A DNA stretch of 64,000 bases from Escherichia coli (GTDB lineage Bacteria; Pseudomonadota; Gammaproteobacteria; Enterobacterales; Enterobacteriaceae), in NCBI RefSeq assembly GCF_003334335.1, contig NZ_QOWQ01000012.1. One strand, given 5' to 3'. The position numbers were made by a program, and so were the translations under genes. Each line of letters begins with the position of its first letter. Position 1 is the first letter of the stretch. The notes below the pieces were generated by a model. It had not been told where the DNA came from, made no database searches, and worked only from the letters and a program-made list of their open reading frames with translations. Below are positions 50,856 to 51,334 of the stretch, in pieces.

Positions 50856-50992
50856 ACGACCTCCCTTTGTGAAATATCATGCTAGCGCGCGGTGAGGGAT
50901 GGCGCAAATGGAGTTGGAGACTTGTTTAATGTGTTTGTATGATTCAGTATGTTCTTGCATCGCTATTCACAAGGAAGCAACAGTTAAAAACC

Positions 50993-51334
50993 ATGAAACA
51001 GGCAACAAGAAAACCGACGACACCCGGAGATATTCTTCTCTATGAATATCTGGAACCGCTCGATTTGAAAATCAATGAGTTAGCAGAGTTGCTGCATGTT
51101 CATCGTAATAGCGTCAGTGCACTGATCAATAACAATCGTAAACTCACTACTGAGATGGCATTTCGTCTGGCGAAAGTTTTTGATACCACAGTCGATTTTT
51201 GGCTAAACCTCCAGGCGGCGGTTGATCTTTGGGAAGTTGAAAACAACATGCGCACCCAGGAAGAATTGGGACGGATTGAAACAGTGGCTGAATATTTGGC
51301 ACGCCGTGAAGAGCGTGCAAAAAAGGTCGCGTAA
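50993..51334 (+). CDS. ybaQ: XRE-family HTH protein, HigA-antitoxin-like (YbaQ)
   Basis: 113-aa protein MKQATRKPTTPGDILLYEYLEPLDLKINELAELLHVHRNSVSALINNNRKLTTEMAFRLAKVF from ATG 50993; the ORF track starts 18 codons upstream. Confidence 0.9.
   Translation: MKQATRKPTTPGDILLYEYLEPLDLKINELAELLHVHRNSVSALINNNRKLTTEMAFRLAKVFDTTVDFWLNLQAAVDLWEVENNMRTQEELGRIETVAEYLARREERAKKVA

Follow-up and report, generated by a model that had tools for sequence, protein, structure and literature searches.

The stretch of Escherichia coli DNA analysed here (64 kb; the window) has the K-12-type gene order ushA, ybaK, ybaP, ybaQ, a REP array and copA (Table 1). The intergenic region between ybaP and ybaQ is 137 bp long (50856-50992). 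The REP units downstream of ybaQ match the REP-derived Rfam family naRNA4 (RF02564) on both strands. Their copy number differs among strains, as seen from coverage steps, with three 101-bp units in K-12 and one or two in many others. UTI89 is devoid of the array and has a ybaQ-copA spacer of 57 bp. The small RNA sroB (Rfam RF00368) lies between ybaK and ybaP; it was matched in the near-identical locus L003:780-863 at 82 bits (gathering score 44), and its position in the window, about 49979-50062 on the plus strand, was set by offset.

Table 1. Features at and around ybaQ in the window.
Feature	Coordinates	Strand	Remarks
ushA	47689-49341	+	
ybaK	49378-49857	-	
ybaP	50061-50855	-	PF01963 TraB/PrgY/GumN; divergent from ybaQ
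ybaP-proximal intergenic part	50856-50916	.	~98% identity across toxin-plus-antitoxin, orphan and empty states
K-12-type replacement segment, ~68 bp	50917-50984	+	Junctions relative to the toxin-bearing allele
ybaQ CDS, 113 aa + stop	50993-51334	+	Translation MKQATRKP...AKKVA; HigA-family antitoxin, XRE-type DNA-binding protein
Helix-turn-helix domain, residues 16-70	51038-51202	+	Pfam HTH_3, 1.6e-10
YbaQ C-terminal tail ...AKKVA	51317-51331	+	'YbaQ' ClpXP/ClpAP degradation tag in the literature; extent approximate
REP/BIME array	51356-51616		Three units, 101-bp spacing, between ybaQ and the copA 3' end
copA	51650-54154	-	3' end faces the REP array

An earlier note on this DNA had described the ybaQ product as a 113-residue helix-turn-helix protein of the XRE/HigA type, and the assignment is confirmed. 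YbaQ scores 105.3 bits against the NCBIfam equivalog model TIGR02607 ('HigA family addiction module antitoxin'; curated cut-off 47.7), with residues 6-84 aligned to positions 2-80 of the 81 in the model. A search of the PDB returned 2EBY, the crystal structure of exactly this protein, and the best solved relatives after it are HigA, VapI and GraA antitoxins. A longer reading frame of 131 residues from the ATG at 50939 was rejected; all homologues begin MKQATRKP and the sequences upstream of this point are unrelated, so the start is placed at 50993. The C-terminus of YbaQ has been used in published work as a tag for degradation by ClpXP and ClpAP. Its ssrA-like ending, -VA or -AA (-IA in one case), is kept in all 18 of the intact homologues listed; the copy at locus L009 is frameshifted.

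The same note had found no toxin ORF either in the 137 bp upstream of ybaQ or in the REP array downstream of it, and this was upheld by a permissive search with the cognate toxin, HigB-1. With a word size of 2 and E-values accepted up to 100, six-frame tblastn of 50700-51700 gave a best E-value of 0.07, for a match within the REP units; over the whole 64-kb window nothing rose above chance level and no match improved on this value.

When 50700-51700 was compared by megablast with 5426 complete genomes of E. coli, the locus was found in three states. In the first, ybaP and ybaQ are separated by a gene of 303 bp, as in UTI89, the Nissle-type strain 83972 and many more. The 100-residue product of this gene in UTI89 matches the Pfam family PF05015 (HigB-like_toxin) over the whole model with an E-value of 9.4e-32. 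This toxin gene, higB-1, occupies that position in 1266 of the 5426 genomes; ybaQ itself is present in 4834. The YbaQ proteins of K-12 and UTI89 are 100% identical, and their genes differ by four synonymous and no non-synonymous changes. The second state is the toxin-less junction of the K-12 type, found in about 3560 genomes, or about two-thirds of the set. This count is within eight of the number of genomes that possess ybaQ without the toxin. The junction is therefore common to essentially all orphan alleles, which a single ancestral event is enough to explain.

In the third state ybaQ is absent (about 590 of 5426 genomes, about 11%). The ybaQ-less allele of GN05505 (L002:1700-1790) is a secondary deletion of the K-12-type allele, from which the upstream segment as far as GTATG and the final ~22 bp of ybaQ remain. 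This strain also carries a 7-bp duplication (GCGCAAAT) near ybaP. In 347 genomes a GC-rich dispersed repeat of ~270 bp stands in place of ybaQ, as in the ybaP-copA spacer of RIVM_C037791 (L003:1780-2050). The repeat is found in one to eight copies in every E. coli genome, K-12 included, and its sole Rfam match is a sub-threshold one to TwoAYGGAY (31.5 bits against 43).

A scan for relatives of YbaQ, in which each species was represented by one genome, returned 17 loci. Three of these lie in the ybaP-copA context and all three are orphans, namely the locus of the E. coli representative and those of two Escherichia from cryptic clades (L004 and L009). At the other 13, and at a distant locus in a Caldilineaceae MAG, a HigB-like gene is found directly upstream of the YbaQ homologue in every case. 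The paired loci include those of Trabulsiella, Citrobacter portucalensis, C. koseri, Enterobacter spp., Kluyvera spp., Sodalis, Erwinia and E. albertii. Neither ybaP nor copA occurs within 3 kb of any of the paired loci outside the ybaP-copA context. Since the toxin is always paired with the antitoxin there, with neither flanking gene nearby, the pair behaves as a mobile two-gene cassette. The earlier note had pointed to the plasmid association of ybaP (TraB family) in other contexts. As a clue to a plasmid origin this was rejected as irrelevant: ybaP is unchanged in all three locus states and absent from the homologous toxin-antitoxin loci.

Several toxins are decaying beside intact antitoxins. 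In CFT073 and LF82 the toxin is a frameshifted pseudogene and the antitoxin is intact; at other loci the toxin is interrupted by in-frame stops (L007 and L013) or a frameshift (L012), or has a disrupted N-terminus (L011). Decay that begins with the toxin thus recurs in several lineages, with the antitoxin intact each time. The toxin would have to be lost first because prior loss of the antitoxin would be lethal. A 'partial toxin' in HS-02 (L024:1230-1490) was rejected as a decay intermediate, since the sequence breaks up into long homopolymer runs of A and C; an artefact of assembly or consensus is most likely. The region is annotated as a hypothetical protein, and the ybaQ stop codon is lost there too.

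Alignment with the toxin-bearing allele shows homology from ybaP to 50916, resuming ~8 bp before the ybaQ start codon. Between these points the toxin-bearing strains have ~405 bp, comprising the operator/promoter, higB-1 and a spacer, compared with ~68 bp in the K-12 type. The conservation of the ybaP-proximal part given in Table 1 was obtained by aligning K-12 with UTI89, GN05505 and RIVM_C037791. By eye the ~68-bp segment could pass for a decayed higB-1 promoter (~62% identity). This reading was rejected: the best match of the segment to the operator consensus is 20 of 40 positions, which 415 of 5000 shuffles equal, and blastn-short gave no match to any toxin-antitoxin locus. There is also no significant similarity between the segment and the rest of the window. 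Because the replacement segment bears no detectable relation to the toxin-antitoxin module, the event was not a simple internal deletion. A weak sigma-70-like site, TGGAGA-17-TATGAT, is present at 50915-50943 but is not above chance. The nearest Shine-Dalgarno-like sequence, AAGGAAG, ends 14 nt before the ybaQ start, farther away than in UTI89.

What the K-12 type has lost besides the toxin gene can be seen from the intact modules. A near-invariant block, TGCACTTGCGCACAGTGCAnnnGTGCnnTAnnAT, lies ~57-92 bp upstream of the toxin start in UTI89 and in all 14 of the close relatives with a toxin that were checked (enterobacterial and plasmid loci); the sequence around it is otherwise unrelated from locus to locus. 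We read the block as a putative promoter, with TTGCGC as its -35 box and TAnnAT as its -10 box, between and around which lie four half-sites (GCAC/GTGC). These would form a symmetric array, GCAC-N4-GCAC-N-GTGC-N4-GTGC, equivalent to two overlapping GCAC-N9-GTGC palindromes; both this geometry and the mode of binding are predictions. Repression of the promoter by YbaQ has been reported, in that higB-1 is derepressed on knock-down of ybaQ in strain S88 (Rousset et al., bioRxiv 10.1101/2020.05.25.114553). In E. coli the block is restricted to toxin-bearing genomes; it was found in 1268, the size of the toxin set. It is absent upstream of K-12 ybaQ, where no autoregulatory operator of a module promoter is present, and throughout the 64-kb window. 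Searches of the window for GCACNGTGC, for GCAC-N9-GTGC and for the 18-nt core with three mismatches gave matches at chance level or none, and none of the half-site patterns falls near ybaQ, ybaP or copA. Autoregulation of K-12 ybaQ has therefore probably been lost, yet the gene is still expressed, its protein being detected in K-12 proteomics.

We consider it highly probable that ybaQ is the antitoxin gene left over from a chromosomal type II module, higB-1/ybaQ, which lost its toxin and operator together. The earlier note had put forward an orphan antitoxin left after toxin loss as one explanation, and the intact PF05015 toxin directly upstream of an identical YbaQ in the 1266 genomes supports it. 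The note had also proposed a synteny comparison, which located the cognate toxin at ybaP-ybaQ-copA in E. coli and at all 13 loci elsewhere; the toxin directly upstream, in one operon with the antitoxin, is thus the arrangement at the orthologous locus and at the homologous loci of other genera, and the window is without it. A toxin ORF adjacent to ybaQ had been expected to speak against the idea. None exists in the window, and the one found in other strains confirms the loss in K-12.

On our reading, an intact module with the toxin gene first would formerly have stood between ybaP and copA. A dimer of YbaQ would bind the 25-bp operator set out above, which overlaps the -35 box and the spacer in the promoter of higB-1, and would thereby repress the operon. 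YbaQ would also neutralise HigB-1, which by family would be a ribosome-dependent mRNA endonuclease of the RelE fold, and would itself be degraded by ClpXP, with the C-terminal tail as the signal. The protein is identical in toxin-bearing strains, where ybaQ is reportedly essential because of higB-1. In the K-12 lineage a single event would have taken the operator/promoter and the entire toxin gene, leaving ~68 bp of unrelated sequence, and the unchanged YbaQ would now be produced from a weak replacement promoter of presumed activity, with neither its own operator nor a toxin to bind. The cryptic-clade Escherichia (L004 and L009) are already orphans, so the loss is either old or has been spread by recombination.

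For the orphan alleles of K-12, L004 and L005, and for the first 93 codons of that of L009, pairwise pN/pS values are 0.06-0.20 by the Nei-Gojobori method, calculated from small counts of 5-15 synonymous and 2-5 non-synonymous differences per pair. Such values are not expected of a gene with nothing left to do, and point to purifying selection on ybaQ after the toxin was lost. In Escherichia sp. E1V33 (L009:3270-3345) the orphan ybaQ is frameshifted by deletions of 10 bp and 1 bp, which affect the C-terminal 20 residues.

A tentative explanation for this retention, compatible with an origin by toxin loss, is that YbaQ was co-opted as a stand-alone regulator and has been kept for the control of other K-12 genes. 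Purifying selection among the orphan alleles is consistent with such a role, as is the persistence of the orphan form with its single junction in so many genomes. The protein has been detected in K-12 proteomics, ChIP-exo binding and a motif for YbaQ have been published for K-12 (Gao et al. 2018), and the same possibility was raised by Rousset et al. (bioRxiv 10.1101/2020.05.25.114553). The literature that we searched, however, yielded neither a target gene nor a phenotype for YbaQ, and the chance-level occurrence of operator half-sites in the window, none of them close to ybaQ or its neighbours, also argues against it. Moreover, ybaQ is dispensable, because it is missing from ~590 genomes and frameshifted in E1V33.

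The same hosts also harbour mobile elements that carry a related toxin-antitoxin module. By tblastn, 92 plasmids, mostly from E. coli and Salmonella and of ~75-95 kb, carry a toxin 80-90% identical to HigB-1. The module is also present in phage D6 (MF356679), where the toxin is 80% identical, and in the one D6-like plasmid examined it lies amid phage tail and baseplate genes. The D6-type antitoxin shares ~79% identity with YbaQ, and the two are almost the same in the recognition-helix region (HRNSVSALINNNRKLT versus HRNTVSALVNNNRKLT). The operator half-sites of the plasmid module are the same as those of higB-1/ybaQ, whereas the C-terminal 20 residues of the two antitoxins differ strongly. The 'second copies' in E. 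albertii (L019) and E1V33 (L010) are of this D6 type. In E1V33 the complete D6-type module is on a different contig from the frameshifted orphan ybaQ. In E. albertii NBRC 107761 (L019:2590-2635) the toxin start is preceded by tandem repeats of ATGACCA, a 7-nt unit present in four more copies than in the E. coli plasmid version; slippage in these repeats could shift the toxin start or frame.

Within the complete E. coli genomes there are 63 D6-type plasmid toxin copies, in only 63 of 5426 genomes. At most two of the 63 also have chromosomal higB-1, compared with ~15 expected if the two were independent. This exclusion could be a consequence of phylogroup structure or of incompatibility between the two modules.

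These observations suggest a further role for the orphan, which we think rather unlikely: free YbaQ would neutralise the HigB of incoming D6-like phage-plasmids, repress their higBA promoter, or both, so that cells could shed D6-like elements without post-segregational killing. Anti-addiction is an established concept for other chromosomal modules (review PMC2654758), the sequence likeness of toxins, recognition helices and half-sites described above is in its favour, and operator loss would free expression of the orphan from control by its own level. Strong divergence of the C-terminal 20 residues weighs against the idea, as does Survcare253, a strain with orphan ybaQ that stably carries a D6-like plasmid. 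The scarcity of the plasmid copy also implies that selection from this source is weak. More doubtful still is the fullest version, in which orphan YbaQ would act as a constitutive chromosomal antidote to the D6-like HigBA module, both silencing its promoter and neutralising its toxin. If true, this would explain purifying selection on an antitoxin that has no toxin, and might explain why the plasmid toxin is so rarely found beside the chromosomal one. The regulatory and anti-addiction roles are not mutually exclusive, and any present-day role of YbaQ in K-12 is one that we infer.

Two other accounts of the origin carry very little probability beside the loss of higB-1 and its operator. Orphans form the majority and occur also in the cryptic Escherichia clades, as they would if a solo XRE regulator were ancestral at the locus, the toxin had been added in B2/F strains and YbaQ had never been an antitoxin there; but outside the locus all homologues come with a toxin and with the same operator in front, YbaQ matches an antitoxin equivalog, and one loss is a far more parsimonious course than the precise insertion of a toxin with matching operator upstream of an antitoxin already cognate to it. 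Just as improbable is a split module, in which K-12 YbaQ would have its partner toxin encoded at another place in the genome, given that sensitive blastn with higB-1 across all complete E. coli (at the DNA level, with a reach down to ~65% identity) returned 1328 genomes, with 1267 chromosomal copies at the locus and 63 plasmid copies, and no copy in K-12-type genomes, and that the tblastn search of the window was likewise negative.

The solitary state of YbaQ and its history of toxin loss have already been published, in 2007 and in 2020/2021. RASTA-Bacteria (PMC2374986, 2007) named YbaQ as the first solitary antitoxin known from E. coli, and assigned it by profile as VapB-like; in contrast, the family models used here assign it to HigA. 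Rousset et al. found that ybaQ is essential only in B2/F strains with higB-1 upstream, that the toxin is truncated in CFT073, that higB-1 is absent from K-12 and most phylogroups and that phylogroup D has lost both genes. They noted that the retention of ybaQ suggests another function. Each of these points is reproduced by our independent analysis, to which we add the single shared junction, the co-loss of the operator, the pN/pS values, the link to D6 and the pseudogenisation of the toxin in other genera.

The locus carries little weight for discovery. It is a clean textbook case of toxin-antitoxin decay, and it illustrates that a 'core' gene may be essential in some strains only. Taken together, operator co-loss, purifying selection and the presence of a D6-like module allow a direct test of the anti-addiction idea in K-12, and they are perhaps worth a short follow-up.

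The closest known system is higB-1/ybaQ of the B2 and F strains, an orthologous module at the same ybaP-copA locus with an identical YbaQ. The window differs from it in having ~68 bp of unrelated sequence in place of the 303-bp toxin gene and the operator/promoter, and ybaQ is non-essential in the K-12 type because the toxin gene has been lost. The D6 module (MF356679; also, for example, NZ_CP076307.1) has the same gene order and operator half-sites, and its antitoxin ends in -KKAA; unlike the locus in the window it is complete and resides on a mobile element in a neighbourhood of phage tail genes. Among solved structures, the only relative of HigB-1 is GraT of the Pseudomonas putida GraTA system (PDB 6F8S and 6F8H; E = 3.4e-14). 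GraA and the HigA structures (3TRB, 3CEC, 2ICT and 4MCX, the last being Proteus vulgaris HigBA) match the helix-turn-helix core of YbaQ with E-values of 1e-13 to 1e-6. GraTA and the solved HigA proteins are distant, with ~30-40% identity over the core, and belong to complete modules, and the C-terminal extension is longer in YbaQ.
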